The notes: generated by a model from the letters alone, not told the origin. A DNA stretch of 64,000 nucleotides from an uncultured Fibrobacter sp. (GCA_934700345.1 CAKUXP010000002.1:50515-114514), one strand, 5' to 3'. Positions 16,820 through 45,699 are shown, counted from the first letter of the stretch. Made by a program: numbers and translations.

Positions 16820-17956
16820 ATGATAAAATGGTGTGCGCTTGGCATTTTGACGGTTGCACTCTTGTCCGCTTGCGGTGACGATGTGACAAAGACCGTCGCA
16901 GGAGAACCGCAAGGCTTGGAAATTGCGGCGGACGTGGATTCGCTTCCCCTGTGCGATGCGAAAAATATCGGCGGGATGTTCTTAATTCCGAAAAAGGAAG
17001 AAGTCTATGTGTGCCTGGATTCGGGCTGGAAGAGCCTTACGCCGGATGTAAAAGGGCATTCCTGCATGACGGAGATGCTCCCGGACAGTTCGGGCAGCAA
17101 GATTGTCTGCGACGGGGATTCGCTCGGCGTCGTCTCTAACGGAAAGAACGGCAAGGACGGCGAAACCGGGGACGTTGGCGAAAACGGTGCCGCAGGCAAG
17201 ACGTGCCACTCGGCGGATAACGGCGACGGCTCGTTCTGGCAGATTTGCGGCGAAGATTCCGTGATGCTCTATAAGGCTTTTTGCCGGGATGTGTTTTATG
17301 ATCCGGACAGCGCCTTTTGCGATTCGCGGAATATGCGGCTATATCGGATGGTTCGAATCGGCGAGCAGGTGTGGATGGCGGAAAACTTGAACTATTCAGG
17401 ATATAAGACGTATGTTCGCGACAGTACGAGTGGTAAGAGTGGTTGGGGTTGTCTTTTTAGTAGTGGCGCCGATGGTAGCGGTAGGTTTTTGCTTGGGGTT
17501 TGCTATGAGAAGAATGGAGAGTATTGTGAAAAGTTTGGACGGCTTTATACAAACCGGGAGATTGAAACGCTCTGCCCTGCCGGTTGGCACATGCCGGATT
17601 CGACGGAATGGAAATCCCTGTTCGCTTTCGTGGCGGAAAATGGCGGGGGAAATGTGGGGGGCAGTCTGCGTTCTGTAAATGGCTGGAGTAAAAATATTCT
17701 GGCAACGGACGAGTTCGGCTTTGGAGCGCTTCCTGGCGGTTTTATGGAAGAACATTTTGACAAGCAGGGCTATTGTATTGAATCTAGGGATTTTTATAGA
17801 ATCTCTATCGAGGCGCGTTTTCTGAGTGCTGAAGGCGGTTATTTTGTTTTTGACAGTTATGACGCTCTTGACACTTTTTCCGATGGCGTAAGATATGTAG
17901 AGAACGAGGGCATTACGAAAGGTTCCTCGGTCCGGTGTATTCGGGACGATGGCTAG
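16820..17956 (+). CDS. Lipoprotein with a Fibrobacter-succinogenes-major-paralogous-domain (FISUMP / Fib_succ_major-like) C-terminal domain and a short collagen-like GXY tract
   Basis: Lipobox LLSACGDDVTKTV. GKN-GKD-GET-GDV-GEN-GAA-GK (7 GXY). C-terminal domain with VRIGEQVWMAENLNY and CPAGWHMPDSTEWKSLFAFV, which I recognise as the FISUMP paralog family signature. Confidence 0.6.
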   Translation: MIKWCALGILTVALLSACGDDVTKTVAGEPQGLEIAADVDSLPLCDAKNIGGMFLIPKKEEVYVCLDSGWKSLTPDVKGHSCMTEMLPDSSGSKIVCDGDSLGVVSNGKNGKDGETGDVGENGAAGKTCHSADNGDGSFWQICGEDSVMLYKAFCRDVFYDPDSAFCDSRNMRLYRMVRIGEQVWMAENLNYSGYKTYVRDSTSGKSGWGCLFSSGADGSGRFLLGVCYEKNGEYCEKFGRLYTNREIETLCPAGWHMPDSTEWKSLFAFVAENGGGNVGGSLRSVNGWSKNILATDEFGFGALPGGFMEEHFDKQGYCIESRDFYRISIEARFLSAEGGYFVFDSYDALDTFSDGVRYVENEGITKGSSVRCIRDDG

Positions 17957-17988
17957 CGGTCAAGGAATTTAACCAAGAGGATTTGTCG

Positions 17989-19257
17989 ATGAGAATAGGA
18001 AAGCTTTCCCTTGTAATCTGCACCGTGGCGTTCTTTATTGCCTGTAGCGATTCCGTGACGGAGGTCGTCCGCCCCGTGGAGACCGTCGTTCTTGGAAAGG
18101 CGGATTCCCTGCCGGAATGTTCCCCCGAAAACCAGGGACAGATGGCGGTAATTTCGGAAGACGCTTCGGCGTATGTCTGTGAAAATTCGAAATGGGAAAA
18201 TCTGGTATCAAAACCCGATGCGGAGCCTTGCGTCTTGATAGCCCTTTCGGACGGTTCCGGCTATAAAATCGTCTGCGGCGAGGACACGGTGGGAACGGTT
18301 TTGAACGGAATGGATGGACAGAACGGAGCAAAGGGCGAGCAGGGAAAAAGCGGCTTGGATGGACGGGACTGCTTTTTTATCGACAATGCCAACGGAACGA
18401 TTTTGCAGATTTGCGGCGAGGATTCGACCGTGCTTTCGAAAGCGCTGTGCGGCGGCGAACCCTATGACCCGGCGACGCATTTTTGCTATAGTGATAGGCT
18501 TTATGCGCAAGTCGTTTATGATACGCTTATCGATGCGCGCGACGGCTTCAGCTATCGGACGGTCAAAATCGGGAGCCAGACTTGGATGGCGGACAATCTT
18601 CGCTTTGTAACGGACAGCAGTTCTTGCTTGGACGATACGCTGCGTTGTCTGGAATATGGCCTCTACTATAAATGGTTTGACATGATTGATTCTATTGGTA
18701 AGTACAGAGGAACTCCTCTTATCTGTTCGAATCCTTATGGTATTGTTGATAACGGTGGTGAGGCGCGAGTTACGGAATGTAATCTGGAAACACCGGCGCG
18801 AGGCATTTGCCCGGAAGGCTGGCATATTCCGACATCCGAAGAATGGGCTTGGCTGTTTAACACTGTGGACCGGATGGCGTACGAAGGGATTGGCAAGGTT
18901 TTGAAGTCAAGAACGGGATGGGATTTCGTGGGAGGTGATAACGGAATCGACTTGTTTGGGTTTGACGCAAAGCCGACCGGTGCTAAAGGCGAACCAACTG
19001 AATATGGTGAAGGTGGCTGGGGTGAACGCGAAGCGGAAATAATGGATGATATTGCTTCTTTTTGGGCTGCGGACTTTTATCAAGGCGATTCTTCTTGGTG
19101 TGCGAGCGGCTCGTGCTTTGGCTACATTTTTGCCCAGCTAGCCGCAGGGAATGGAATGAGCCGTATATATTTATCTAGAATGTTCAAAAAAGTTGGCCGT
19201 GATTATGATAGGGAATTTTTATCAAGTGTCCGTTGTGTTCGAGATGAACAGGACTGA
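17989..19257 (+). CDS. FISUMP-like paralogous lipoprotein (second copy)
   Basis: Lipobox FFIACSDSVTEVV at an internal ATG at 17989 (the track ORF starts at GTG 17935 and overlaps the previous gene). GMD-GQN-GAK-GEQ-GKS-GLD-GRD (7 GXY). VKIGSQTWMADNLRF and CPEGWHIPTSEEWAWLFNTV. Confidence 0.6.
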   Translation: MRIGKLSLVICTVAFFIACSDSVTEVVRPVETVVLGKADSLPECSPENQGQMAVISEDASAYVCENSKWENLVSKPDAEPCVLIALSDGSGYKIVCGEDTVGTVLNGMDGQNGAKGEQGKSGLDGRDCFFIDNANGTILQICGEDSTVLSKALCGGEPYDPATHFCYSDRLYAQVVYDTLIDARDGFSYRTVKIGSQTWMADNLRFVTDSSSCLDDTLRCLEYGLYYKWFDMIDSIGKYRGTPLICSNPYGIVDNGGEARVTECNLETPARGICPEGWHIPTSEEWAWLFNTVDRMAYEGIGKVLKSRTGWDFVGGDNGIDLFGFDAKPTGAKGEPTEYGEGGWGEREAEIMDDIASFWAADFYQGDSSWCASGSCFGYIFAQLAAGNGMSRIYLSRMFKKVGRDYDREFLSSVRCVRDEQD

Positions 19258-19291
19258 AAATCAGAATTTTACTCCGAGGTAGGAATTTTCA

Positions 19292-20596
19292 ATGAAAACA
19301 GATAAACTCTTTTTGTCCAGTCTTTTGGTTGCGGCTTTTTTCGTCGCCTGCGGTGACGATGTGACGCGGGTAGTCTCTCCGTCCGGGATGGAAACGGTTT
19401 CGCTCGGGGAATGTTCAAGCGAGACTCTCGGAAAAATGCTCTATGTCGCCGAAAGGAAAAGCGCCTATGTTTGTGGCGATACCGGCTGGTTTCCGCTTGC
19501 TTCCCGCAGGGAAAAGCTCGCCTGTGATTTCGAAATCTTGGAGGATTCTTCGGGCTACCGGATGGTTTGCGACGGCGATTCCGTCGGCGTCATCTATCAT
19601 GGAAAGGACGGTGCGGATGGGACGCTTGGGGCAAATGGCGAGAACGGCTCTTTGGCAAGTTGCTCGATAATCGAAAAGGAGAACTGGATTTTTCTCCAGG
19701 TTTGCGGTTTGGATACGACTTTCCTTTACCAGGCGATTTGCGGGGGCGAGCCTTTTGACCCGAAGGCAAATTTTTGCTTTGAAGGCAAAATTTTCGAAAA
19801 ACCTGTTTTCGGGACTGTTACCGATTTGCGGGATTCCGAAGTCTATCGGACTGTTCGGATAGGAAAGCAGACTTGGATGGCGGAAGATTTGCGAAGGGAT
19901 ATTCCGGGTAGCGTTACAAATGATCCCAAAGCCTGTCTTACAACGGATACGAGTGCTTTTTGCACATATTGGAGGGGTAGGAAAAATGGACCTAGTGGTG
20001 TGGGTATGTGGATGTTTGATCGCGCCTTTGCGGATTCTGCCGCTGAATTGATTCTTAGTGCGGGACGCCTGTATGAAGCCGAAAGCCTTTCTGTCTCGGA
20101 CAAGGCCGGGCTGTGCCCTGCCGGATTCCATCTTCCGGACAGCAGCGAATGGAATGAATTGCTTGCTTTTGTAACGGCTCATAGCCAAGGTGTCGAGCCG
20201 CTGCTTGCGCTTTGGGCTAATTATGGTTGGGCGGGTTGTACTGAAGGCGGTTGGGGGTTTTTGACGCCAACAGGATCTGGTACTACTTCTGATGGGCAAA
20301 ACCGAGGGGTCAACGGCGTGGATTTGTTTGGCTTTTCGACTTTGCCTGTATGGACGCAGACGATAGATATTACTAGACAAAATTTAGACGCAGATTTTTC
20401 GGATATGTACGGAAATCTTTCTGCCTATATAACGGATGAAGGGTTGTTTACGATGCTAGCTGCTGATGGAGGCTTTCATTATCGTAACATCTTGGCGGGT
20501 GGTACTCCTTGTTTGACATGTACAGCGACGCGTGAAATTTCAGACCATTATGGAGTAGAAGTTTATAGAGGCTTTGTCCGTTGTGTGGGGGACTGA
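19292..20596 (+). CDS. FISUMP-like paralogous lipoprotein (third copy)
   Basis: Lipobox FFVACGDDVTRVV. GKD-GAD-GTL-GAN-GEN-GSL (6 GXY). VRIGKQTWMAEDLRR and CPAGFHLPDSSEWNELLAFV. Confidence 0.6.
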   Translation: MKTDKLFLSSLLVAAFFVACGDDVTRVVSPSGMETVSLGECSSETLGKMLYVAERKSAYVCGDTGWFPLASRREKLACDFEILEDSSGYRMVCDGDSVGVIYHGKDGADGTLGANGENGSLASCSIIEKENWIFLQVCGLDTTFLYQAICGGEPFDPKANFCFEGKIFEKPVFGTVTDLRDSEVYRTVRIGKQTWMAEDLRRDIPGSVTNDPKACLTTDTSAFCTYWRGRKNGPSGVGMWMFDRAFADSAAELILSAGRLYEAESLSVSDKAGLCPAGFHLPDSSEWNELLAFVTAHSQGVEPLLALWANYGWAGCTEGGWGFLTPTGSGTTSDGQNRGVNGVDLFGFSTLPVWTQTIDITRQNLDADFSDMYGNLSAYITDEGLFTMLAADGGFHYRNILAGGTPCLTCTATREISDHYGVEVYRGFVRCVGD

Positions 20597-33748: not shown

Positions 33749-35170
33749 ATGTTGGAAAAACTCTTTAAAATCACCGAGAACCGTTCTAGCGTTCGAACCG
33801 AAATCCTGGCGGGTCTCACCACGTTCATGACGATGGCGTATATCCTTGCGGTAAACCCCAGCATCCTTTCCGCTTCGGGAATGCCCAAGGGCGGCGTTTT
33901 TATCGCGACGGCTCTCGCGGCGGCTCTTGGCTCGACGCTGATGGCGCTCTTTTCGAACTATCCCTTTGTCCTCGCTCCAGGTCTCGGGCTGAACGCGTTT
34001 TTCTCCTACACGGTTGTCATCACGATGGGATACAGCTGGCAATTTGCCCTGCTTGCCGTCTTTGTCGAAGGCATTGTCTTTCTTGCGCTTTCGCTCACCT
34101 CTGTCCGGGAAAGCCTTTTCAACGCGATTCCGCTTTCGCTCAAGTCCGCCGTGGCGGTGGGCATCGGGCTTTTCATCACGTTCATCGCGTTTCAAGGGGC
34201 AAAGATTGTCGTCAATTCCGATGCGACGCTCGTAACGGTCATCAACTTCCACCGGGCGGATTTTCACACGACGGGAATCTGGGCGCTTCTCGCGATCATC
34301 GGGACGATTGTCACGGGATTTCTCGTTTCGAAAAAAATTCGGGCGGGAATTTTGCTCGGCATGTTCATCACGTGGTTTCTAGGCGTTCTCGCGGAACTTG
34401 TAGGAATCTACGTGCCGGATGCTTCCAAAGGATTTTTCTCCGTGGTCCCGCATTTTGGAAACTACTTCAGCGATTTGGGCAAGACTTTTTCGGAATTCGG
34501 GTCGATAGCCTTTGCCATTTTCCATCCGTCGTCTTGGACGCATTCGGTAAACGGCGCCGTGGATTTTTCGGGCTGGACCCTCGTCAAATCCTTGGACTTC
34601 TTTGTCGTGATGTTCGCCTTTTTCTTTGTCGATTTGTTTGATACGCTCGGAACGCTCATCGGCGTTTCGCTCAAAGGCGGCTTCCTGGATGCGAACGGAA
34701 AGCTTCCTCGGATTTCGGGCGCCCTCTATGCGGATTCCATCGCGACTTCGGTTGGAGCCGTTCTCGGAACTTCGACCACGACGACTTTTGTCGAAAGCGC
34801 AGCGGGCGTCGCCGCCGGGGGAAAGACCGGGTTCACGTCCATCTTCGCCGCGTTCCTGTTCATTGTATCAATTGTTTTCGCTCCGGTATTCTTGGCGATT
34901 CCCGGGTTTGCGACGGCTCCGGCCCTGGTCATTGTCGGCTTTTACATGATAAGCTCCGTATCGAAAATCGAGTTCAAGGATTATTCCAAGGCGATTCCCG
35001 CGTTCCTGTGCATTGTCGCGATGCCTCTAACCTACTCGATTTCGGACGGGATCATGTTCGGCGTAATCTCCTACACGGTGCTGAACTTTGTCCTCGGAAA
35101 GCGGAAGGATATCCATTGGATCATGTACATTCTGACCGTGCTCTTCGTGCTGAAATACGCTTTGATGTAG
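33749..35170 (+). CDS. NCS2 family nucleobase permease (AzgA/PbuG-like adenine/guanine/hypoxanthine permease)
   Basis: ILAGLTTFMTMAYILAVNPSIL and an ~14-TM architecture typical of the AzgA subfamily. Adjacent to apt. Confidence 0.8.
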   Translation: MLEKLFKITENRSSVRTEILAGLTTFMTMAYILAVNPSILSASGMPKGGVFIATALAAALGSTLMALFSNYPFVLAPGLGLNAFFSYTVVITMGYSWQFALLAVFVEGIVFLALSLTSVRESLFNAIPLSLKSAVAVGIGLFITFIAFQGAKIVVNSDATLVTVINFHRADFHTTGIWALLAIIGTIVTGFLVSKKIRAGILLGMFITWFLGVLAELVGIYVPDASKGFFSVVPHFGNYFSDLGKTFSEFGSIAFAIFHPSSWTHSVNGAVDFSGWTLVKSLDFFVVMFAFFFVDLFDTLGTLIGVSLKGGFLDANGKLPRISGALYADSIATSVGAVLGTSTTTTFVESAAGVAAGGKTGFTSIFAAFLFIVSIVFAPVFLAIPGFATAPALVIVGFYMISSVSKIEFKDYSKAIPAFLCIVAMPLTYSISDGIMFGVISYTVLNFVLGKRKDIHWIMYILTVLFVLKYALM

Positions 35171-35190
35171 CGAATCGTTTTTTGGAAAAG

Positions 35191-35218
35191 GACCGTCTTG
35201 CTGGCGGTCTTTTTTTTT
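35191..35218 (+). terminator. Rho-independent terminator after the permease gene
   Basis: GACCGtcttgctggCGGTC followed by a 9-T run. Confidence 0.6.
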
Positions 35219-35240
35219 GTGTGCACAATGCTTTGAAAAA

Positions 35241-35354
35241 TCGTTTCGACTTGTTATATTTCGATTCTCATAAAGAGGTTTTTAAATCAATGCATTTACG
35301 CGTCTTTTTCCTGTTGCTTCTTGTGTCCCTGGGGAACGTTCTTGCCGTGCAGTT
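35241..35354 (+). repeat. Cassette X copy 1: 5'UTR + RBS + signal peptide (MHLRVFFLLLLVSLGNVLAVQ), 114 bp
   Basis: 112 of 114 positions are identical to 36731-36844. The two copies are fused to completely different downstream coding sequence. Confidence 0.9.
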
Positions 35355-36366
35355 GCCCCAAGCGGTTTTTGCAGTTGGAAAGACTCAATACATAGAAACA
35401 GAGAAAAAACAAAACTACAGAATCTGTCTAGAAAATAATCAAAAAGGATTTTGGGATGGATCCATTCCGTTTGTGATGTCGACGGAAAATTGCCTTTTGG
35501 TGACCACTCCAAATCGAACAGGAAGTTTTTTGTTCGTACACTTTAACGATTCGATTTCCTCAGATAGCATTTGGCTTTTAAACAACCAAAAATTAATCGA
35601 TTTGTCAAAAGACGTTCATTTGTTGTGGAGTTTGGATTCCGTTGTTGGACCGTTCAACAAAAGACGCGTGTATGGTTCGTATAAAGCGACTCGATTGAAC
35701 AAGATTCTTGTCGTCGATCGAACGGAAGCGACGGTTGGCGAAGTAAAATATCTGTGTGATTATTTTGGAGTGGCTTACAAAGCTTCTAATTCGTGGTATC
35801 CAGACAATAACGCGTTAAATCATCCCGATATGCCACAAGATCCGGGGTTTGCCACAGTTCCTAATTACGCTAACAATAGAAGTAAACTGGAAGGTTTTGA
35901 AATTTCTTCGTATGCAAACGGAGCGGATACAACCAAAAACGGGTATCGGCTTCCTACTCGAGATGAATGGGTTGCTTTACAGAGAGGCGCTTCTAAAAAA
36001 GATTATTATTGGGGAAATGACACGGATTCACTAACCATTTCCCAATATGAATGGTATAGGTCCGCCAAGGAACGAGTTCATGATGTCGGGTTGTTGAAAC
36101 CAAATCCGTACGGATTATATGATGTCATGGGAAATGCGATTGAATACACTTTACAGGGACGCGAATGTGTCAGCAAGGATGAAAAATCTCGAGAATGCTT
36201 TATAAAAGACGATTTAAAACAACACGAGGCAAAGAACGTTTGCTATACGCGTATAAAATATAATGCGGATAAAAAAATACAAACAAAGGAGTGTCGTGTC
36301 GGATTTTCCCTAAACGAATTTTGGGGCTTCAGATTGGTCCGCCAGCTTTTTATAGATAATCATTAG
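35290..36366 (+). CDS. Secreted FGE-sulfatase/SUMF1-domain protein (paralog A), AT-rich body
   Basis: Signal peptide from cassette X. NGYRLPTRDEWVALQRG, PNPYGLYDVMGNAIEYT and C-terminal GFRLVRQLF are hallmark FGE-sulfatase domain motifs. The true start is the ATG at 35290; the track ORF from 35008 overlaps the permease. Confidence 0.7.
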   Translation: MHLRVFFLLLLVSLGNVLAVQLPQAVFAVGKTQYIETEKKQNYRICLENNQKGFWDGSIPFVMSTENCLLVTTPNRTGSFLFVHFNDSISSDSIWLLNNQKLIDLSKDVHLLWSLDSVVGPFNKRRVYGSYKATRLNKILVVDRTEATVGEVKYLCDYFGVAYKASNSWYPDNNALNHPDMPQDPGFATVPNYANNRSKLEGFEISSYANGADTTKNGYRLPTRDEWVALQRGASKKDYYWGNDTDSLTISQYEWYRSAKERVHDVGLLKPNPYGLYDVMGNAIEYTLQGRECVSKDEKSRECFIKDDLKQHEAKNVCYTRIKYNADKKIQTKECRVGFSLNEFWGFRLVRQLFIDNH

Positions 36367-36683
36367 ATGGTAAAAAACATGAAAGCCAAAATAATTCTTT
36401 TTCAAGCCTTGACGGTGTTGGCTTTTTCGGTGGTGGCCGAAATGTCTCGCTTCTTTCATGCTGCCTATACTATATTTTTCTGTAAAGATAAGTTTTGCCG
36501 ATGTTACGAAAACCAATGGGATTGTCTGCATCGTCTGTCGGAAGAGAGCTGCGCGGATCCTGAAATGTGGAGGATTGACTGATGAAAATTTTTACTTGGT
36601 TCACCGTTCTTTTTCTAGTATTGAGCGAAGTCTTTGCGCTGGAGTACAATGCCGTATTCAATGCGAAGGGTGTGCCGCTTTGA
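36367..36683 (+). pseudogene. Two gene remnants. The first is the 5' end of a paralog-B-like gene (MKAKIILFQALTVLAFSVVAE...). The second is a truncated paralog-C-like start (MKIFTWFTVLFLVLSEVFALEYNAVFNAKGVPL*) preceded by cassette Y.
   Basis: ggtaaaaaacatgaaagccaaaataattcttttt parallels ggtaaaaaccatgaaaatcaaaataatccttttt at 41477. Positions 36504-36673 are ~88% identical to 42876-43046 (cassette Y plus the first ~30 codons of paralog C), then stop abruptly at TGA 36681-36683. Confidence 0.55.
36504..36673 (+). repeat. Cassette Y copy 1: 5'UTR (GGAGG RBS) plus start of a paralog-C-like ORF, truncated
   Basis: Read directly: acgaaaaccaatgggattgtctgca(t/c)cgtctgtcggaagagagctg(c/t)gcggatcctgaaatgtggaggattgac(t/c)gatga(a/g)aattttta... 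is shared with 42876-43046. Confidence 0.85.
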
Positions 36684-36730
36684 AAAAAAACGAAAACTAG
36701 TCTTTTTTTTGTAAACAAAGTTTTGGAAAT

Positions 36731-36844
36731 TCGTTTCGGCTTATTATATTTCGATTCTCATAAAGAGGTTTTTAAATCAATGCATTTACGCGTCTTTTTC
36801 CTGTTGCTTCTTGTGTCCCTGGGGAACGTTCTTGCCGTGCAGTT
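36731..36844 (+). repeat. Cassette X copy 2
   Basis: See copy 1. The two copies are 1490 bp apart. Confidence 0.9.
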
Positions 36845-39797
36845 CCCCCATTCGAAATGGAACCTCGCCACCTATCACGGAGCCTACGCGATATTCGGCG
36901 AGGGCTTTGTCTCCGTGACGGACGGAGGCTCCGACTATTGGCATGTGCAGCTGACTAGGAGCGGCATCGAGCTGCGTGCCGGGAAAACCTACGAAGTACG
37001 GTTCTTCCTGCAGGGCGTAAGCGCGAGGCGTTATGTGGAGGTCCGCATCGGCAGGGACGGTTTTCCGTACGACGCGTTTGCCGAGTTCGGCGAGGTCGTG
37101 GCGACCGCGAACGGAAGGACGGTGACGAGAACTTTCACGATGCAGTCGGGAAGCGTAAGCAACGCCCGGTTCGAGTTCAATCTGGGCAAGGCTACGGGAA
37201 CGGTATATGTCGCCGACATTAGCCTGGACTGCCTCGATTGCGGCGATGATGTCGGAGCCGGCGATTTGCCGGTGTTTCCCGGGGAAAACCTGGACTATGC
37301 GGTCGTAGCCGATACGGTCGATTTCCGGGACGGCTCCATGTCCTTGGGGAGCGTGTTCGGGACAAGGCTTGAACTGGGGGCGGACTCCAAAGTCTTCGGC
37401 GATGTCGATGTCGCGGCGGCGTGCTTCCTTCGGGAACGCACAAAAATTGATGGCGGCTTGCGCTACGGGCGTCCGTGCGCGGAGCAGAACGGCGTGTCCG
37501 CGAAGACGAAAAGCGCCGCCAAACTATCGAAACCCGCATTCGGCGTCCCGAATATCGTTCCCGGGATTTCCCCGGTTTCTGTCGGATTGAAACAGTCCGC
37601 CGAGCTTCCTCCCGGGAGTTACGGGACTTTCTATGCCGCGGCGAAGTCCAGAATCCGTTTTTCTTCGGGAGCTTACGCGTTCCAGTACTTTTACACGGAA
37701 CCCGATGCTGAAATAATTTTTGACTTGTCCGCTGGGCCGGTTACGGTCGGCGTGTCCGGAAGCGTTCGCTTTGGCGACAGGAACCGGTTCTCCGTTATCG
37801 GTGGAAACCCGAGCGAAATTTTGTGGAACGTTTCCGGGGAAAGAGTCGATATGGGGACCGACGGCCTTTATTTCGGAAAATTTGTCGCCCCGGATGCCTG
37901 CGTGCGCATCCCCTCCCGTTCGCATCTCGTCGGTGGCGTCTATGCGAGAAAGTTCGCGATCGAGCCGCAATCGACCGTGTCCAGGGAACCTCGCGCCAGG
38001 GAAATCTCCCACAGCGAAGAGCACTTCGGGCCATTTTTCGAACCGGGAAGGTTTCGCTACCGTTCCCAGGTTTCGCCTTCCCTGTCCAGGATAGAGATGT
38101 TCGTCTATGCGGACAGCCTCCAGGTCACGGTGAATGGAGGCCCTTCAAGGGTCGTTGAGCTTTCGTCTTCGGAAGTTTCTGTCAAAGTGTCGCTCAGGCG
38201 GAACCCGGTGGCGGGGTTCCCTTCCGAAGCGTTCCGCAGCAGCTATCGGTTTGACTTTCTGAAAAATGCGAATTACCGCATCTACTGGAATCCGCAGACG
38301 CCGTGCAGGCAGGGTTGCGACGGGATGACCGCGGCGACGGCCGTCGGCGATTTTGGAAAGGCTCTCGAAACGGCAAGAACGACCGGTCGGGAAATCAACA
38401 TGGCCGGCGGGACCTGGAACGCCTCGGAAAGTTTCCCGGACAGCGTCGTCTCCTGGAAAGTGGGCTTCGAGCTTGTCGGCAACACAGAAAACCTGGGGGA
38501 CCTGTCTTCCGAAAACGACCTGCCCCTGATCGATTTGGGAAATGCCTCCCACATCGAGATAGAGGGGCGCTCTCCGCGCAGCCTGACCGGTTTCCGCATC
38601 GCGAACGGATACAATGCCGGTGACGGCGGCGCAATTTATTCGAACAGCCAGAAGCTCGGGCTTAAAAATCTTCTGGTTTCTTCGTCAAAATCTGGAGGTG
38701 CTGGCGGTGCGGTCTTTGCTTCCGATACGATAAATTTGGAAAATGTCCGTATTTTAAAAAGCTCGTCATTTGGAAACGGAGGAGCTGTTTCTGTCGGCGG
38801 ATTCGCAAAGTTTCTCAACGTTCTGTTTACGGAAAATACTTCTGCAAAAAATGGTGGGGCGCTTGGATTGAATGGTGCAAATGCTTATATTGGAAATGGC
38901 ATATTTTATGGAAATCGATCCGGACTTTCTGGCGGAGCGGTTTACAATGAAAATTCTTTGCTCAATATATGGAATTCAACGTTTTTTGCAAATTTGGCAA
39001 CTACGGCAAACGGAGCTCTTGGGGGAAATGCAAAAGGAATGATTGGAAATAGCATTTTTTGGAAAAATATCACTTCTAAATGCAGCTCAGAAGATTGTTC
39101 TTCGGAGGTCGTTGTTGGTTATTCCGCTACAAATTCCTCCTTTACAAATGCTTATGTTGGCAATAACATTTATGTTGGTGATCCGAAGTTTGCGGATGAA
39201 AAAAATCCAGAAGGCAGAAATGCATATATGGATTATGATGCAGGAATCAACTTGTCCGAGGACTCTCCTCTTTTAAAAGCGGGAATAGCGGATATAAATG
39301 TTCCGACTGACGATTTACTGTCGGAAATTCGAAATATGGCGAATATTGCCTTGGGTGCCTATGCGTATGCAAAACCTAAGCGTGAAACATCTTTTGGTGT
39401 ATTAGATAAGGATGGATCGGTTGTTTCAATAAAGCCTTCAATTCCCTTGATAAATGCAATTTCTGGAGATTATTACAGGGAATATCTAGCGACATCGCCT
39501 TATGCTCGTGTTTGGAAGGCGACGGTTAAAAAGCACAAGAAAACAAAAAAAGATAAGGCTCATGTCAAAATGTGGGTAGTGAACAGACGTGGTGAAAAAA
39601 TTACAAAAGAACCCGTAGAATTTGAAGTTTACCGAAATGGGGAAGAGAACGGTCGCTATGTATTTCAAACGATGACCAAAACTGCCGGTAAACCGGTTTT
39701 ATTTTCGATGCGCCCTGAAGATGCTGGAAATTATAAGGATGCTATTGTTTTATATATGAAGTCTGTTTCTGATTATTTCTATTACGAGGCGGAATAG
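36780..39797 (+). CDS. Large secreted surface protein (1006 aa): N-terminal CBM4/9-like domain, central repetitive region, parallel beta-helix with Pmp/GGA-type repeats. The C-terminal ~380 aa are compositionally distinct (AT-rich).
   Basis: Signal peptide from cassette X (ATG 36780; the track ORF from 36723 includes UTR). The CBM-like region is WHVQLTRSGIELRAGKTYEVRFFLQG. The beta-helix shows repeated GGAIYSN / GGAGGAVFAS / NGGAVSVG / NGGALGLN / SGGAVYNE. G+C drops abruptly near 38640. Confidence 0.6.
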   Translation: MHLRVFFLLLLVSLGNVLAVQFPHSKWNLATYHGAYAIFGEGFVSVTDGGSDYWHVQLTRSGIELRAGKTYEVRFFLQGVSARRYVEVRIGRDGFPYDAFAEFGEVVATANGRTVTRTFTMQSGSVSNARFEFNLGKATGTVYVADISLDCLDCGDDVGAGDLPVFPGENLDYAVVADTVDFRDGSMSLGSVFGTRLELGADSKVFGDVDVAAACFLRERTKIDGGLRYGRPCAEQNGVSAKTKSAAKLSKPAFGVPNIVPGISPVSVGLKQSAELPPGSYGTFYAAAKSRIRFSSGAYAFQYFYTEPDAEIIFDLSAGPVTVGVSGSVRFGDRNRFSVIGGNPSEILWNVSGERVDMGTDGLYFGKFVAPDACVRIPSRSHLVGGVYARKFAIEPQSTVSREPRAREISHSEEHFGPFFEPGRFRYRSQVSPSLSRIEMFVYADSLQVTVNGGPSRVVELSSSEVSVKVSLRRNPVAGFPSEAFRSSYRFDFLKNANYRIYWNPQTPCRQGCDGMTAATAVGDFGKALETARTTGREINMAGGTWNASESFPDSVVSWKVGFELVGNTENLGDLSSENDLPLIDLGNASHIEIEGRSPRSLTGFRIANGYNAGDGGAIYSNSQKLGLKNLLVSSSKSGGAGGAVFASDTINLENVRILKSSSFGNGGAVSVGGFAKFLNVLFTENTSAKNGGALGLNGANAYIGNGIFYGNRSGLSGGAVYNENSLLNIWNSTFFANLATTANGALGGNAKGMIGNSIFWKNITSKCSSEDCSSEVVVGYSATNSSFTNAYVGNNIYVGDPKFADEKNPEGRNAYMDYDAGINLSEDSPLLKAGIADINVPTDDLLSEIRNMANIALGAYAYAKPKRETSFGVLDKDGSVVSIKPSIPLINAISGDYYREYLATSPYARVWKATVKKHKKTKKDKAHVKMWVVNRRGEKITKEPVEFEVYRNGEENGRYVFQTMTKTAGKPVLFSMRPEDAGNYKDAIVLYMKSVSDYFYYEAE

Positions 39798-39799
39798 CG

Positions 39800-41476
39800 A
39801 TGTTTGGAGATTTGGTGAAATGGTGTCTGCTTCTTTCTTTTTTTATGACTTTGATTGCTTGTGATGACGACAAGGTCACTGGGAATACGCGTAAAGAAGA
39901 TTGCGATGAAAGCAACAACCCAAATTGCTATAAGACTATACCGGGAGTTTCTCCGATAAGTGGTGATTATGATTATAAGTCATATGATGATGGGGATGTG
40001 GTCACGTTCCAATGGGACCAGACGCTGGCTTGGTTTCTTCAATCCGAAAATCACCAATATGGTTATGATCGAGATCCTTTTTCAAATTTAGAAGATTATG
40101 TGGAACGCGGAAAGGATGTGTATATGTCTGTCCTAAAAGGTGAAATGGCAAAAGTGAAAATTGTTGTAGACCAAAATTCAAAAAAGATTTATCGAGTGCA
40201 TCGAATTAGTGAAAATAAAGAAATTTTAGAAAAAAATATTATCGTTGGAACGGATGTGTGTCAAGAAAAAAGCTGTGTAAAAGAATACGCCTTGCCTGTT
40301 GGACATTATGCTGTATTTTATGATGAATTGGATAAAAAAAGATATTTGCACATAATTGAATACTCAAAAAAGACGAACGATATTTATTTTGTGCAGCTTG
40401 GAGATGAATATGGAAATACATGCAATATCGGAAATGCTAATGGATGTTATACCAAGAAATCTGTTCAGGACAATTATAACCGAGTGATGGCTCAGGTGGT
40501 AACTGAGGGAAATTTTATCGAAGTCGATCCGACAAAGATGGATTTGGAAACGGCAGGACCGAATAACATTCTTATTGTTGATTTGAATAGTACGAAAGAC
40601 TCAAAATTACCGCTTGTCAATCAAATCTATGATAAAATTTTAGCAAGCAAGGAATTTGGCTATGGGAATGAAGAGGAAAAATATAACGAGATTAGAGAAA
40701 AATATGAAAACGGTGAAGTAGATGTTTCTATCTTCAATTATGCTGTCGAAGCTTATAATTCCGCTGTGTTACGGCATCGGCAGAAGCATATTGTTTTAGC
40801 GATTAACGAAATGCGGATACGATGGAAATTTTTTATAGGGGATGATTACTCTTTAGGCAATTTGAGTGCGTTTGAACGCGCTTGTGAAGTGGATGAAGAT
40901 GTTTGTCAATCGGGTTCTTTGGCTATGACATTGGAAAGTAGCTGTGGCGATAAGGACGTCCCTATAAAATTGAGTGTTGCAAAAACAAAAGACAACGATC
41001 AGTTTATTCCTAAGATTTCTGGATTTGGGGCTTTAAAAAATGGTTGCGAATACAGTATCTATGCGGATGTTTATCCTTTTGTCCCCGATGATCCGAATGC
41101 CGCCCAAATAACCATCACTAACTATAAATCGGAAAAAGATAAAACGGTAATTGGTGGCATGGTATGGGGAAGTCATTTGAATGGTTCTGCTTCACTGAAT
41201 ACGATTGTTCATGAAATCGGTCATTCGTTTGGTTTGACGGATTTACATAAGGATCCAAATGACCCTTCCAATGCTCCAGAACGTTATTACTATTTTGCCT
41301 TTAATGAAGGCAATATCATGGCGAGCTATGTGCCGTCCGGAGAACGGCTTCGTTATCGACCGCTTTTTGTTGTAAATACGGGGACTAACGATAGGATTCT
41401 TTTAGGAAATGGGTGGTATGCCACCGAAAACCAGTGGGATTGTGTCCGTTCAACAAGTAAATGTTATAAAAAGTAG
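39800..41476 (+). CDS. AT-rich lipoprotein with an HExxHxxGxxD putative zinc-metallopeptidase motif
   Basis: Lipobox FFMTLIACDDD. HEIGHSFGLTDLH near the C-terminus. Starts 3 nt after the previous stop. Markedly AT-rich; the ORF itself is confident but the function is not. Confidence 0.5.
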   Translation: MFGDLVKWCLLLSFFMTLIACDDDKVTGNTRKEDCDESNNPNCYKTIPGVSPISGDYDYKSYDDGDVVTFQWDQTLAWFLQSENHQYGYDRDPFSNLEDYVERGKDVYMSVLKGEMAKVKIVVDQNSKKIYRVHRISENKEILEKNIIVGTDVCQEKSCVKEYALPVGHYAVFYDELDKKRYLHIIEYSKKTNDIYFVQLGDEYGNTCNIGNANGCYTKKSVQDNYNRVMAQVVTEGNFIEVDPTKMDLETAGPNNILIVDLNSTKDSKLPLVNQIYDKILASKEFGYGNEEEKYNEIREKYENGEVDVSIFNYAVEAYNSAVLRHRQKHIVLAINEMRIRWKFFIGDDYSLGNLSAFERACEVDEDVCQSGSLAMTLESSCGDKDVPIKLSVAKTKDNDQFIPKISGFGALKNGCEYSIYADVYPFVPDDPNAAQITITNYKSEKDKTVIGGMVWGSHLNGSASLNTIVHEIGHSFGLTDLHKDPNDPSNAPERYYYFAFNEGNIMASYVPSGERLRYRPLFVVNTGTNDRILLGNGWYATENQWDCVRSTSKCYKK

Positions 41477-41485
41477 GTAAAAACC

Positions 41486-42856
41486 ATGAAAATCAAAATA
41501 ATCCTTTTTCTCGCCATTGCGGTGCAGGCCTTTGCCGCCAAGGATTCTCTCTACGAAATCAATGGAACGGTTTTTAACAAGGAACACGGGCCGAGAGGTC
41601 CCAAGGCGATAGTCAAGGTTTCCCGTACTGTACCGAGGATAAAGCCGCTCCGCGCAAGCGAGGATTCGTTTCAGGTTTCCTTGAGAAAAGGTGGAGATGA
41701 GCGTTGGCTTGAAATGGAAAAGAATACGGTCTATTCCGTCTGTGTCGATGATGATGGCGGCTTTTGGAAAGTTGAAGATTTCAAGTACGAAAAAGAGGGA
41801 AGTTCATGCATTAGATTGCATTCCGGGAATTACGTGAAAAACGGGAAAATTCAGTATGCGACCAGGATGGGCAACGGTTACACTTTTCAGTTGTTGGTCG
41901 GAATGAAGTACATCGATCTCAGGGGGAAAAAACATCTTTTGGGGTATTTAGAGCTGGGCGAAGGCTTCTATTACAAGGAAGGCCTTTGGTATCCGATCGA
42001 TCCGGGAAGGTACGAAGCTATGGACAAGGTTCTGGCTGTGGATAAGTATATGGTCACCGAATGCGAATTTGTTCAGGCTCTGTGGGACTCCATTCCTGCG
42101 CAAGCCAAAAGGGAGTACCAGAGGAATCATCCCTTTTGGATAGAGAAAAAAAAGACCATGACGAAAAACGGATTTTGCGATGCGCATGATTCCGCGGTGG
42201 TCCGTGTCAATTTGTACTATGCCCTTGTCTATGCGAATCTTCGAAGTGTTCGGGACGGTTTTCAACCGGTCTATTCTTTCGAATGGACGGATAATGGATA
42301 CGGCCTTGCGGAAGACGGCAGCTTTGTCATTTCCGATGTCAATTTTCACGTAGAAAACTCGGCTGTCCGCGTGAGGATAGATACAAGCGCGAACGGCTAT
42401 CGTTTGCCCTATTACGATGAATGGATGGCGTTGGGACGCGCCGGACATGATTATACGTTTTATGTATGGGGCCGTGATGGCGATTCCGCAATTGCCGCTC
42501 GGCACGCTTGGTTTGGCGTCCGGGACCCGGAAGACAAGTATTTAAAAATGAACAGGAACGATTGGAATGAACGAAGCCGCTTGGAACGTTCTTGCGGGAA
42601 ATGGCTACAAAAATCTAAGCCGGTAGGAATGCTGAAACCGAATGACTACGGATTGTATGACATGTTTGGTCTTGTGTGCGAAAACGTTATCATGGAAAAA
42701 CACCAGGTATATTTCCATGGGGTTGCGGCTACCTGCAAGGGCGGCTTTTTGGCGGATACCCTCAAGGCGTTGAACTTTAAAGCGAAGTGCAGGACTGATT
42801 TTTTTGATCCGGAAAGACTTTTCCAAGGATTGCGCCTGGTCAGGCAAATCAAGTGA
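41486..42856 (+). CDS. Secreted FGE-sulfatase/SUMF1-domain protein (paralog B)
   Basis: Signal peptide MKIKIILFLAIAVQAFAA. VTECEFVQALWD, ANGYRLPYYDEWMALGRAG, KPNDYGLYDMFGLVCENV and C-terminal GLRLVRQIK. Confidence 0.7.
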   Translation: MKIKIILFLAIAVQAFAAKDSLYEINGTVFNKEHGPRGPKAIVKVSRTVPRIKPLRASEDSFQVSLRKGGDERWLEMEKNTVYSVCVDDDGGFWKVEDFKYEKEGSSCIRLHSGNYVKNGKIQYATRMGNGYTFQLLVGMKYIDLRGKKHLLGYLELGEGFYYKEGLWYPIDPGRYEAMDKVLAVDKYMVTECEFVQALWDSIPAQAKREYQRNHPFWIEKKKTMTKNGFCDAHDSAVVRVNLYYALVYANLRSVRDGFQPVYSFEWTDNGYGLAEDGSFVISDVNFHVENSAVRVRIDTSANGYRLPYYDEWMALGRAGHDYTFYVWGRDGDSAIAARHAWFGVRDPEDKYLKMNRNDWNERSRLERSCGKWLQKSKPVGMLKPNDYGLYDMFGLVCENVIMEKHQVYFHGVAATCKGGFLADTLKALNFKAKCRTDFFDPERLFQGLRLVRQIK

Positions 42857-42875
42857 TGGTGCAAAATGTTGAAAT

Positions 42876-43046
42876 TACGAAAACCAATGGGATTGTCTGC
42901 ACCGTCTGTCGGAAGAGAGCTGTGCGGATCCTGAAATGTGGAGGATTGACCGATGAGAATTTTTACCTGCTTCGCCGTTCTTTTTCTGGCGTTGAACAAA
43001 ATCTTTGCGTTGGAGTACCATGTCGTATTCGATGCGAAGGGGCGGC
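42876..43046 (+). repeat. Cassette Y copy 2 (intact; drives paralog C)
   Basis: See copy 1 at 36504-36673. Confidence 0.85.
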
Positions 43047-44281
43047 TTATCGGAAAAACAGAGGGCTCGGCAAAGATCGGTTACGAGAATTTCGGGAAAG
43101 GCGCCTATTTTGTACTCCGTAAAGGCACTGCGGATAAAAAATCGCCGGAATATAAACGCTCCGTTCCCGCCTTAGAATCTGGTCGGACAAGGTGGTATGA
43201 GGCGGAAAAAAATGAACATGTCAAGATTTGCCCGTCCAATTCGTCGAGCGGAGGAGTTTGGCTTGCCAAGATTCAAGCCGAGGTGGATGCTTCAAACTGT
43301 CTCGGTGTCTTTACGGGTCAATTTGTCCGGAGTCTTTTCGCCCTGTATGTTCCGGACACTTTGAAAATGGAATCTGCGGATACGAGCTGGATTCTTGTCG
43401 GACAAAAAATCGCGCCCATTTCGAAGGGAACGCATCGTTTCTTCGAGGGGAAAGAAGCTCCGCTTCGAAAGATGCAAAATCCGGAATCGGGATATCGAGA
43501 TATAAATTTCTCTTATGATTTGATTGTCGATGCTATGGAGTTCCGTGTGGGCGATGCGGAATGGTTGATTGGTTCGGCTGAAACAGACTCTTTGATAGGA
43601 AAGGACTTGGATTTCATTGATGAACGGAAACTTTTTAACCGAAGTTCCTTGCCCATGGAAACATCGGAAATATATCGCCTGGCAAACGCCCGCAGCGCAC
43701 GTGACGGCCTAGATTCCGTGTACAGGCTTTTACCAAAGGATGTGTGGGAAAAAAGCGGGCTTCCCTTTTTGGACATTTCCGAACGGAGAAATTTAGTCCT
43801 TGTACTTGACACTTCTGCGAATGGCTACCGAGCGCCTTTTTTTGAAGAATGGGCCGCTCTGCAACGCGCAGGAGGTTCGGGAGATTTCTTCTGGGGTAAC
43901 GATAATTCTCTGTCTGGAGAAGCGATCAAATACGAACAACTGTTTGGGGATACGGCCTCTGCCTTTTGCCGTCCGTCGGGCCAAAAGACGCCGAATCCGT
44001 ATGGCCTGTACGATGTCTATGGAAATGCTTTGGAATATGTCTTGAAACGGTCCGTATCGTCGGGGCGTTATTACCACATGATCGAATGCCAAACGGATTT
44101 TAAATATGACCGCAGCCCGGTGTGTTCTCTGTTCTTTGACATGGTCGGCTACAGGGCGAGCAAGAGGCGAAAAATCTGCATCGGAGAGTTTGATGCAGAG
44201 GGAAATGTCTCCGAGACATGCACGCCCTATATGAAGCGGACCTTTGTCAAAGGCTTCCGCCTTGTGCGAAAGCTGCGGTGA
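42953..44281 (+). CDS. Secreted FGE-sulfatase/SUMF1-domain protein (paralog C)
   Basis: Signal peptide MRIFTCFAVLFLALNKIFA. ANGYRAPFFEEWAALQRAG, PNPYGLYDVYGNALEYV and C-terminal GFRLVRKLR. Confidence 0.7.
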   Translation: MRIFTCFAVLFLALNKIFALEYHVVFDAKGRLIGKTEGSAKIGYENFGKGAYFVLRKGTADKKSPEYKRSVPALESGRTRWYEAEKNEHVKICPSNSSSGGVWLAKIQAEVDASNCLGVFTGQFVRSLFALYVPDTLKMESADTSWILVGQKIAPISKGTHRFFEGKEAPLRKMQNPESGYRDINFSYDLIVDAMEFRVGDAEWLIGSAETDSLIGKDLDFIDERKLFNRSSLPMETSEIYRLANARSARDGLDSVYRLLPKDVWEKSGLPFLDISERRNLVLVLDTSANGYRAPFFEEWAALQRAGGSGDFFWGNDNSLSGEAIKYEQLFGDTASAFCRPSGQKTPNPYGLYDVYGNALEYVLKRSVSSGRYYHMIECQTDFKYDRSPVCSLFFDMVGYRASKRRKICIGEFDAEGNVSETCTPYMKRTFVKGFRLVRKLR

Positions 44282-44300: not shown

Positions 44301-44729
44301 TCAGATATAATACATATATCCCGAGGATTTTTTGGAAATGAGTTTGTCTAAGGTGATGCTTTTTAGGACCGCGGAAAGCGCTTCGTCGATTTTGTCGTAA
44401 AGCCCGATGCGCAGGGCCTTTCGAAACGGAGTTTCTTCTGCTGTCGGGAGCGGCGGATCGATGATTTTCAGGTCGCCTTCCAGGGCTTCCAGAATGCTGT
44501 CGAGGTGAATGTCGGCGGGAGGCTTGGCGAGAACGAATCCGCCGCTCGAACCCTTGATGGATCGGATGAATCCCGCACGCTTCAGGACGATGGCGATTTG
44601 CCCGAGATAGGTTGAAGATATCTGCTGCCTTTCCGAAATTTCGGCAAGGGTCGTGTGCGAGTTTGGCCCCTGCTCCGCGATATCGATTAAAAAGCGGATG
44701 CCGTAGCGTCCCTTGGTGGAAATCTTCAT
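44301..44729 (-). CDS. Rrf2-family transcriptional regulator (no Cys cluster)
   Basis: MKISTKGRYGIRFLIDIAEQG... is a typical Rrf2 winged-helix N-terminus. Start ATG 44727-44729 overlaps the stop of the upstream Rrf2 gene (ATGA). Confidence 0.8.
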   Translation of the reverse strand: MKISTKGRYGIRFLIDIAEQGPNSHTTLAEISERQQISSTYLGQIAIVLKRAGFIRSIKGSSGGFVLAKPPADIHLDSILEALEGDLKIIDPPLPTAEETPFRKALRIGLYDKIDEALSAVLKSITLDKLISKKSSGYMYYI

Positions 44730-45154
44730 CCGATGAAAACTCCTTGCACTCCGCGGTAAATGGTCGCAAGGTCTTCGAGCGATACCGTCTTGAGGGTGGC
44801 TTCGAGCGCGCCGCTCACCTTGTCCCAGACCTCCTTGGATTCGCAAGCTTCCTTGCGTGGACATTCGCCGCCGTTTTGGCAGGGAACGGACCGGAGCGAC
44901 GTCTCCATCTTGCTTAGAATGTCATACGCGGAAATCTCCCCGGGTTTCTTGGCGAGCCTGTACCCGCCTTGTACGCCGCGGGTTCCGGTGATGAATCCCG
45001 CCTTTTTGAGCGGAATGAAAAGCTGTTCCAGGTAGCCTTCCGAAAGCTTTGTCTCTTCGGCAATCGAATGGATGCTGCGAGGCTTCTCGGAAGTCCCCGT
45101 GGCGAGATTTAAAAGTGCTTCAATGGCGTATTGTCCGCGGGTGGAAATCTTCAT
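44726..45154 (-). CDS. Rrf2-family transcriptional regulator with three Cys (CQNGGECPRKEAC), an IscR/NsrR-like Fe-S type
   Basis: MKISTRGQYAIEALLNLATG... with the cysteine triad in the position used for cluster ligation in IscR/NsrR. Start at 45154 overlaps the OMP gene stop (ATGA). Confidence 0.8.
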   Translation of the reverse strand: MKISTRGQYAIEALLNLATGTSEKPRSIHSIAEETKLSEGYLEQLFIPLKKAGFITGTRGVQGGYRLAKKPGEISAYDILSKMETSLRSVPCQNGGECPRKEACESKEVWDKVSGALEATLKTVSLEDLATIYRGVQGVFIG

Positions 45155-45699
45155 CTGCTGACGTCGATGGCTTTTAATCCCGGGCGGGAATTGGCAAACA
45201 GGATTCCCAGCGAGATGCCGAACCCGTGTTCGGTCTCCTTGGCGAACGTCCACTGGTAGGAACCCTTGATGCGGAAGGAGATGAACGATTCGCGGAAAAA
45301 GTAAAGTCCCGCGTTGGCTTCTACGGTCGGTCCGAACCGGTCGCCGAACGTATCGAGAATGTCGTCTTCGGGAAGCGCGCTTACGCCGGCCATGCCGCCG
45401 ACAAAGGGTGTGATGCTTGCCGGGAGAAGCATTTGCTGCAGACCGAGCTTTACGTTAAATCCGTTTCCCGGGAACGAGTAGCCGATGTCGCTCGTTAGGC
45501 TCGTGTAGGGGAGAAGCTGGATGTTCGAAACAAAGTTCACTACGCCGAATGCCGAGCGTTCGTCGCTCCAGGAATCGTTTACGGGTTTGAATGCTCCGAG
45601 TTCAAGGCCAAAACTCGAAAACGGGTTATAGACGGGACGTCCTTCGCCTGCGAAAGCCGCGATAGCCAGAGAACCGATAAAAAGAATCCATTTTTTCAT
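45151..45699 (-). CDS. Small secreted outer-membrane beta-barrel-like protein
   Basis: Signal peptide MKKWILFIGSLAIAAFAGEG at ATG 45699. Alternating hydrophobic beta-strand pattern with G/Y/F-rich segments, 182 aa. First gene of a three-gene translationally coupled unit. Confidence 0.45.
   Translation of the reverse strand: MKKWILFIGSLAIAAFAGEGRPVYNPFSSFGLELGAFKPVNDSWSDERSAFGVVNFVSNIQLLPYTSLTSDIGYSFPGNGFNVKLGLQQMLLPASITPFVGGMAGVSALPEDDILDTFGDRFGPTVEANAGLYFFRESFISFRIKGSYQWTFAKETEHGFGISLGILFANSRPGLKAIDVSR

Follow-up and report, generated by a model that had tools for sequence, protein, structure and literature searches.

In contact-dependent inhibition (CDI) loci, with their cdiA-CT/cdiI pairs, and in Rhs loci, orphan modules made of a C-terminal part (CT) and its immunity gene accumulate beside the active copy. 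O-antigen and capsule loci, as well as mosaic surface-protein alleles, are low in G+C, lie between conserved genes, and are exchanged through homologous recombination. Here we compare with these systems a gene cluster of an uncultured Fibrobacter sp., found at positions 35,241-44,281 of a 64,000-nucleotide stretch of DNA (GCA_934700345.1, CAKUXP010000002.1:50515-114514), which we call the window and whose 64-kb numbering is used throughout. The cluster encodes three secreted proteins with a formylglycine-generating enzyme (FGE)-sulfatase/SUMF1 domain (A, B, and C), a β-helix surface protein (BH), and a lipoprotein (LP2), and it contains two repeated segments, X and Y. An earlier note on this DNA had taken X and Y for shuffled, portable 5′ cassettes. 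We find instead, with a probability of about 0.75, that the region is a single haplotype of a locus that varies among strains of gut Fibrobacter and that it represents the wreckage of tandem three-gene units, in which X and Y are retained gene ends. The mosaic is owed to duplication, deletion, and recombination rather than to a programmed shuffling.

As in CDI and Rhs orphan arrays, a gene for a large secreted protein passes abruptly from a conserved 5′ part to a variable 3′ part, with which the partner gene downstream co-varies; 3′ fragments and partner genes that have been displaced lie beside the active copy, and short homologies permit exchange. The Fibrobacter locus differs from these arrays in that its variable parts are divergent homologues rather than unrelated toxin domains, two partner genes (for LP and for an FGE-fold protein) are exchanged together, all products are exported, and the orphans sometimes decay; in addition, no toxin, immunity, or delivery family was detected. 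With O-antigen and capsule loci it shares an AT-rich variable segment, a fixed chromosomal site, alternative allelic sets, and patchy divergence between close strains, but it consists of a protein triad rather than sugar-biosynthesis genes and has one of its breakpoints inside a structural gene.

All features of the locus lie on the plus strand. The gene for a purine/xanthine-type permease (33749-35170) forms the left border and is followed by A (35290-36366, 358 amino acids), an open reading frame (ORF) of 71 codons (36367-36582), a second ORF of 33 codons (36582-36683), BH (36780-39797, 1005 amino acids), LP2 (39800-41476, 558 amino acids), B (41486-42856, 456 amino acids), and C (42953-44281, 442 amino acids). 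Two adjacent genes for Rrf2-family regulators and then a gene for a 182-residue protein, located on the opposite strand at 44301-45253, form the right border and are conserved in every haplotype. Comparison of the window with itself returned three repeats that are far beyond chance: X (35213-35360 versus 36703-36850, 148 nt, 93.2% identity, E = 4e-59), Y (36504-36670 versus 42875-43041, 167 nt, 89.8% identity, E = 1e-59), and the start of B (36369-36426 versus 41476-41533, 58 nt, 79% identity, E = 2e-7). The two X copies share a core of 101 perfectly identical nucleotides (35254-35354 = 36744-36844), which spans the -10 box, ribosome-binding site, ATG, and signal peptide; the earlier note had correctly seen a near-identical untranslated region, ribosome-binding site, and signal peptide in front of A and BH. 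It had also recognized that the interval between A and BH mirrors the B/C junction, and this interval holds the 58-nt match to the B start together with the first copy of Y.

Copy 1 of X (35213-35360) begins inside the T-run of a terminator-like element at the end of the permease gene, a hairpin (GACCG...CGGTC) followed by a T9 run that we read from the sequence at 35190-35218, and the same junction is present in contigs L082 and L104. The copy carries a predicted σ70-like promoter (TTGAAA-16-TATATT at 35233-35260), a ribosome-binding site, the ATG at 35290, and a BH-type signal peptide, and meets the A body at 35355-35360 through the microhomology CCCCA. Copy 2 (36703-36850; promoter-like TTGGAA-16-TATATT at 36723-36750, ATG at 36780) represents the BH gene's own 5′ end. 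It is preceded, on the side of the C remnant, by an A8...T8 terminator-like element (36674-36702, likewise read by inspection), whose T-run and following bases resemble the permease terminator/X1 junction and which also follows the C remnant in L092. An Rfam scan of the window returned no structured RNA family anywhere, the shared X leader included.

In the A protein of the window, the BH signal peptide runs in frame into A residues 71-406, and the FGE-sulfatase domain is kept. Its closest homologue, P0001, has 406 residues, is 99% identical over the body, and starts with a different, 70-residue N terminus that has its own signal peptide; full-length A with a different N terminus also occurs in L096, L098, L099, and F. 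intestinalis. P0001 sits in the sister contig L082 (96-98% nucleotide identity), where the order is permease, X, BH, LP1 (513 amino acids), and full-length A, and the succession BH-LP-A is again found in F. intestinalis. The A gene of the window is therefore the product of an in-frame deletion that reaches from just after the BH signal peptide to A codon 70. A single event through the CCCCA microhomology removed most of BH, LP1, and codons 1-70 of A. The X-A join is one deletion junction, common to the window, L086, and L087. Contigs L104 and L105, which belong to a sister lineage, read permease-X-BH(c2)-LP2-B-Y-C, which corresponds to the window minus its 1490-bp first unit. All contigs with P0001, that is, the L082-type haplotype, stop about 290 nt past A. 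In L082 (11367-11507) a 150-nt B stub is followed by a 140-nt tail that starts a forward ORF (MSSRFLQVDSVLKADGF...) with no match among the sequences compared.

Y is likewise present twice, as the earlier note had stated, but it is not a cassette driving C and a 33-codon remnant. Its upstream half encodes YENQWDCLHRLSEESCADPEMWRID followed by a stop codon, 25 residues that are identical to the LP3 C terminus in L098. In that contig LP3 is complete (515 amino acids) and shares one base of its stop with the start codon of C. Y therefore represents the junction of the LP3 and C genes, composed of the last ∼80 nt of the LP3 gene and the overlapping start of C. Copy 1 (36504-36670), 95% identical to the intact junction of L098, contains the LP3 3′ end and ∼30 initial codons of C, with stop and start overlapping in TGATG; here the LP3 stub stands before 33 codons of C. 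Copy 2 (42875-43041), in which a fragment of the LP3 tail (42875-42953, with an in-frame stop ahead) leads into the start of C, stands before the intact gene. The 71-codon ORF is a chimera of a B-type start and signal-peptide stub (36369-36426), a segment of 77 nt (36427-36503), and the LP3 tail (36504-36582). With X1 formed by deletion and Y consisting of LP3 tails and C starts, the layout of the window identifies both repeats as retained gene ends, not mobile cassettes.

C itself is an orphan in the window, its native partner being BHc3-LP3 (see below). In L086 (∼13240) and in L090 its frame is shifted by the loss of one G from a G4 run at about codon 29 (equivalent to window position ∼43040), so that gene callers report a 468-residue product from an upstream start. 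The site of the frameshift coincides with the point at which the C remnant of Y1 diverges from C.

The repeats do remain substrates of homologous recombination. The signal-peptide part of X2 equals that of X1 in the window and in L086, and carries L082-type variants in L087, a pattern that fits gene conversion between X copies. In L092, the Y that follows B is a hybrid: its start resembles copy 2 and its end copy 1, and the C stub and terminator are present; such a hybrid is the product expected of unequal exchange between the Y copies.

Fibrobacter carries a conserved three-gene unit, which consists of BH, LP, and a secreted FGE-fold (SUMF1-like) gene. The three accompany one another in F. 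intestinalis and Fibrobacter sp. UWEL, and also on other contigs. The units fall into three ancient sets, c1-LP1-A, c2-LP2-B, and c3-LP3-C (c1 to c3 denote the type of the BH C-terminal part, BHc), the members of which always occur together. In 53 further metagenomic loci, concordance extended to 33 of 33 complete triads (16 c3-LP3-C, 14 c2-LP2-B, and 3 c1-LP1-A): an LP2-like gene preceded a B-like gene in 14 of 14 surveyed triads and LP3 a C-like gene in 16 of 16. Types are also concordant in L084, L100, and L102. A literature search on Fibrobacter and formylglycine returned no description of the BH-LP-FGE-fold unit. A search for synteny with the flanking permease among one-genome-per-species contigs was uninformative, its best matches being ∼65% identical and none having the locus downstream.

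The variable locus sits between the permease and the two Rrf2 genes, and at least five haplotypes occur there. Each has one complete BH-LP pair, then the matching FGE-fold gene and then orphans, with up to three FGE-fold types in all. L099 continues after X with the complete unit c1-LP1-A, B, and an LP3 stub with C; L096 has the same order, with C cut to its last ∼80 nt. In L098, X is followed by c3-LP3-C, A, B, and a 3′ remnant of C, and in L104 by c2-LP2-B and an LP3 stub with C. The window has truncated A, the B stub, and an LP3 stub with the C stub before its complete unit, c2-LP2-B, and ends with an LP3 stub and C. Debris composed of an LP tail and an FGE-fold gene is seen in other species as well (L102, L110, and L147). 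In the Fibrobacter-like contig L157 (8977-10868), BH is cut to a 141-residue ORF (signal peptide and most of CBM4) directly followed by a complete B-type gene, an independent loss of BH-LP with the partner gene retained. In the strain comparison that the earlier note had proposed, unit types, orders, and deletions differ from strain to strain.

The window comes from a metagenome scaffold of 175 kb, several related contigs break within X or Y, and the G+C content changes abruptly, all of which could point to an assembly chimera, the repeats marking false joins between co-existing strains. Yet L086 and L087, from other samples and another assembler, are collinear with the window over 14.5 kb around the locus at about 98.5% identity; the shorter contigs L088 to L095 match the BH-LP2-B part, and L088-L090 also reach through C. 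This recurrence in independent assemblies identifies the arrangement as a genuine, recurrent, and stable haplotype. Moreover, the junctions rest on a 5-nt microhomology, far below assembler k-mer sizes, and the G+C steps are present in all haplotypes and in the isolate-derived genome of F. intestinalis. We have rejected a chimera on the strength of the independent assemblies, and consider it next to impossible.

The alternation in base composition noticed earlier is real and ranges from 0.59 to 0.38 across the locus: G+C is 0.588 in the N-terminal part of BH, 0.399 in its C-terminal part, 0.376 in LP2, 0.396 in A, 0.475 in B, and 0.486 in C, compared with 0.509 for the window. The variable segment (G+C 0.34-0.40 against a genome value of 0.51) is rich in A+T whichever haplotype is considered, and it is so in F. 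intestinalis as well. The segment for the BH N-terminal part (36851-38641 in the window) has a G+C content of 0.59 versus 0.51 for the window and of 0.57-0.60 in L098 and L099; in F. intestinalis it equals the local genome value, 0.45, and the elevation is particular to the lineage of the window. GC-biased gene conversion between tandem copies might account for it.

Between the window and L086/L087 there are no mismatches over BH and LP2, and 5-9% in blocks that cover A, parts of B, and Y2 with C. Strains sharing the arrangement differ from each other in sharp blocks, by 0 to 9%, and their synonymous divergence (dS) lies between 0 and 0.22. Given the varied unit types, orders, and deletions and the patchy divergence of alleles, homologous recombination reshapes the locus in the population. 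The suggestion that this is a surface-protein locus diversified by recombination thus holds at the population level, with its five or more haplotypes, block divergence of 0-9%, and the hybrid Y of L092, and fails for the shuffled 5′ cassettes. The earlier note had also said that a static arrangement resulting from an old tandem duplication of uniform divergence would speak against its proposal. The arrangement is static in this clone and the tandem duplication is old, but divergence is not uniform.

Active shuffling would have X and Y act as portable promoter/signal-peptide cassettes that are repeatedly placed before different bodies and so vary the secreted proteins within the population. In its favor, X carries a promoter-like site, a ribosome-binding site, a signal peptide, and a perfect 101-nt core; the X copies look gene-converted, the hybrid Y of L092 fits an unequal crossover, and the locus varies structurally among strains. 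Against this, X precedes just two bodies, BH and truncated A, and Y just one, C; the X-A join is the single deletion junction described above; the arrangement does not vary among several samples; and the orphan pieces are debris. Neither the genes called over 21 kb around the locus nor 20 further ORFs of at least 250 residues contain a recombinase or reverse-transcriptase domain, in line with the earlier note, which had seen no recombinase. Inverted repeats in the window are of 20-24 nt and at chance level only, which does not match an invertible promoter or a shufflon. An exact search for the X core in the Joint Genome Institute (JGI) metagenome collection gave no match, which has little weight since that collection seems to be without this lineage. 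We regard active shuffling as very unlikely, and portable cassettes do not describe X and Y.

We propose that retained gene ends came about as follows. The species would once have carried several units in tandem, of which the first 1.9 kb (promoter, signal peptide, and N-terminal part of BH) became homogenized. Deletions and homologous exchanges would then have left one complete BH-LP pair per strain, plus orphan FGE-fold genes and fragments. In the window, X2-BH(c2)-LP2-B is the intact unit. The X1-A fusion, the 58-nt B stub, the LP3 tail, and 33 C codons (Y1) make up a degenerate upstream unit, and a second LP3 tail ahead of the intact orphan C (Y2) lies downstream. The exposed C-terminal part of BH is probably under diversifying pressure, so that whole matching sets are exchanged.

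Several points weigh against this reconstruction. The order in L098 is C-A-B, and the window has A-B′-C′ ahead of its intact unit; because neither order can be derived by simple deletions in a 1-2-3 array, additional duplications or insertions have to be assumed. The 77 nt at 36427-36503 match no source found. The closest strains are represented by metagenome assemblies only, with no isolates among them. Truncated A may be functional rather than debris, since it is under purifying selection (ratio of nonsynonymous to synonymous substitution rates, dN/dS, of ∼0.13, range 0.12-0.17; 0.12-0.21 for A, B, and C with truncated A included) and has retained a promoter and a signal peptide. Finally, the function of the unit is inferred entirely, from folds and export signals only.

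BH has a conserved N-terminal part of 621 codons (BHn, 36780-38641), which comprises the signal peptide, a CBM4 module, an ice-binding-type β-helix (DUF7305), and the start of a PMP-repeat β-helix. The type 2 C-terminal part (BHc2, 38642-39797) contains the rest of the β-helix and a C-terminal β-sandwich and is set off by a sharp step in identity at residue ∼621. The earlier note had called BH a carbohydrate-binding module (CBM)/β-helix protein, of 1006 residues by its count, and this description is borne out by both domain and fold: the match to CBM_4_9 scores 39.9 bits against a Pfam cut-off of 25.9 (E = 7e-10), sequence searches of the PDB return CBM4 modules, and Foldseek matches CBM4 structures (E = 1e-7). 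The structure model (pLDDT 81.6) is all-β and shows the CBM4, an ice-binding-protein-like β-helix, a second helix with a periodicity of ∼25 residues, and the C-terminal sandwich. Across strains of this lineage the first ∼621-660 residues are ∼90-97% identical, whereas identity falls to ∼30% in the remainder; three hybrid proteins (P0023, P0040, and P0043) are ∼90% identical up to residue ∼620-660 and ∼30% beyond. BHc1, BHc2, and BHc3 are homologues with 30-36% identity, equal length, and a common architecture. BH resembles the chlamydial polymorphic membrane proteins (Pmp) and further β-helix proteins with PMP repeats in its GGAI-type repeats (PF02415 matches in BH homologues), the ∼25-residue β-strand periodicity, and the expansion of paralogues; BH differs from these in that no autotransporter barrel was detected, in its N terminus of CBM4 and DUF7305/ice-binding-like domains, and in being accompanied by LP and an FGE-fold gene. 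In L082 (7404-7406), a TAA takes the place of the CAA (Gln) of relatives and splits BH into ORFs of 656 and 349 residues; this copy may be a pseudogene, or the TAA may be an assembly or sequencing error.

LP2 is a lipoprotein (lipobox LIAC) with a metzincin-type, adamalysin/fragilysin-like zinc-peptidase domain and the C-terminal QWDC motif of its family. The metzincin signature HExxHxxGxx(H/D) is present as HEIGHSFGLTD, and H471, E472, H475, G478, and D481 are invariant in 23 homologues; the fold is that of a metzincin catalytic domain, and Pfam returns sub-threshold metallopeptidase matches only. The AT-rich lipoprotein with a metzincin-like motif described earlier is thus recovered. LP1 and LP3 also carry HExxHxxGxxD, and all LP variants share QWDC yet are <30% identical to one another. 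Unlike adamalysin/fragilysin metzincins (ADAMs, snake-venom metalloproteases, and MPII and BFT from B. fragilis), to which its sequence identity is only 9-12%, LP2 has a long β-rich N-terminal region, a lipoprotein anchor, and a C-terminal QWDC...C; its peptidase activity is predicted from motif and fold.

A, B, and C all pass the gathering cut-off of PF03781 (FGE-sulfatase, 23.3 bits) with 48.9, 44.5, and 24.0 bits (E = 9e-13, 2e-11, and 3.5e-5), C barely so, and the earlier assignment of three FGE-sulfatase/SUMF1 proteins stands. FGE enzymes have a catalytic Cys-x4-Cys pair upstream of a terminal GFR motif. By eye, though not by a structure-based alignment, no Cys-x4-Cys is found in the C-terminal 80 residues of A, B, and C, and the FGE-fold member of the unit is thus predicted to be a secreted SUMF1-like protein that lacks this catalytic motif. 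The FGE fold of PorK is also without the two catalytic cysteines (PMC12421860). A, B, and C resemble PorK/GldK of type IX secretion (T9SS) and the Treponema denticola variable protein TvpA in having an FGE-sulfatase domain without the cysteine pair, with weak matches to GldK models and a match to TvpA. They differ in that they are not lipoproteins, do not belong to the T9SS core, and are not diversified by a retroelement.

TvpA is the best solved-structure match of A (PDB ID 2y3c, E = 7e-10), and FGE-type domains are common among the targets of diversity-generating retroelements (DGRs) (PMC11661182). The FGE/C-type-lectin fold of A, B, and C might then be mutagenized by a reverse transcriptase encoded elsewhere in the genome. 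In the 64-kb window, neither a template/variable repeat pair nor, among the larger ORFs, a reverse transcriptase was found. Substitutions among orthologues of A, B, and C (5-7 strains each) are evenly spread, with no hypervariable patch at the C terminus. A DGR, suggested by the TvpA match, was rejected for want of a repeat pair, a reverse transcriptase, and hypervariable codons, and we give it almost no credence.

Taken together, these folds and export signals suggest that BH, LP, and the FGE-fold protein likely form or process a carbohydrate-binding complex at the cell surface. A single active set with retained orphan partners also resembles polymorphic toxin loci, which leaves an effector/partner or recognition system at low probability. 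The C-terminal part of BH, LP, or both would then be a delivered effector, the matching FGE-fold protein would give protection, and the orphans would resist the variants of neighbors. In favor of this, the boundary between the conserved N-terminal and the variable C-terminal part is sharp, the downstream genes co-vary perfectly, and each haplotype has exactly one complete BH-LP pair but as many as three FGE-fold types; orphan modules in which a partner gene is combined with the 3′ fragment of a gene recur in several species, the orphans are under purifying selection, and the LP fold resembles the fragilysin and adamalysin toxins. On the other hand, the BHc variants are homologues of one architecture rather than unrelated toxin domains, neither a toxin nor an immunity family was detected, a search for known defense systems with PADLOC gave no match, and the unit is without a gene for a delivery apparatus. 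LP, being a lipoprotein, is probably retained by the producing cell, and orphans decay in places, with C frameshifted in L086 and deleted in L096 and A absent from L104. We therefore judge an effector/immunity-like system rather unlikely. In wider terms the triad may be an undescribed polymorphic surface system, in which the matching set is swapped as a unit behind the homogenized N-terminal part and displaced FGE-fold orphans are kept to bind or neutralize the variants of neighbors, be it in an effector/immunity-like manner or in self/non-self recognition; this, too, is a tentative idea that we do not expect to hold.

Other differences and paralogue clusters were seen near the locus. In a lineage ∼88% identical to that of the window, a minus-strand gene for a protein of 755-816 residues, with weak matches to Peptidase_M6 and DUF4859, lies between the permease and X (L096 7485-9758, L098 7502-9952, L099 7518-9785); it is absent from the window, L082, and L104. 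A 2.5-kb insertion with two minus-strand genes, one of which encodes an Eco57I restriction-enzyme domain, is found in L086 (14482-17013), L087, and L088 at a site equivalent to that between positions 44281 and 44293 of the window, from which it is absent. Further upstream, the window contains a second paralogue cluster, three tandem genes (16820-20596; 378, 440, and 434 amino acids) that each carry a Fib_succ_major domain (PF09603). A 250-residue leucine-rich-repeat protein (12370-13122, minus strand) is encoded beside a 627-residue AIPR (abortive-infection-related) protein (13607-15490), and this pair may be a small defense islet.

For annotation, our comparison means that the 5′ ends which unrelated genes have in common can be scars left by deletion and need not be mobile cassettes, and that it is the sister strains that decide between the two. 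Loci of this kind usually mark surfaces seen by phages, hosts, or competitors, and the locus is therefore a candidate marker for strain typing. The analysis brings out a conserved, uncharacterized Fibrobacter unit, and in a lineage from human and animal guts its types are swapped at a single chromosomal site. The locus is also a lead to how the cells of this fibre-degrading genus interact with their substrates or with each other.

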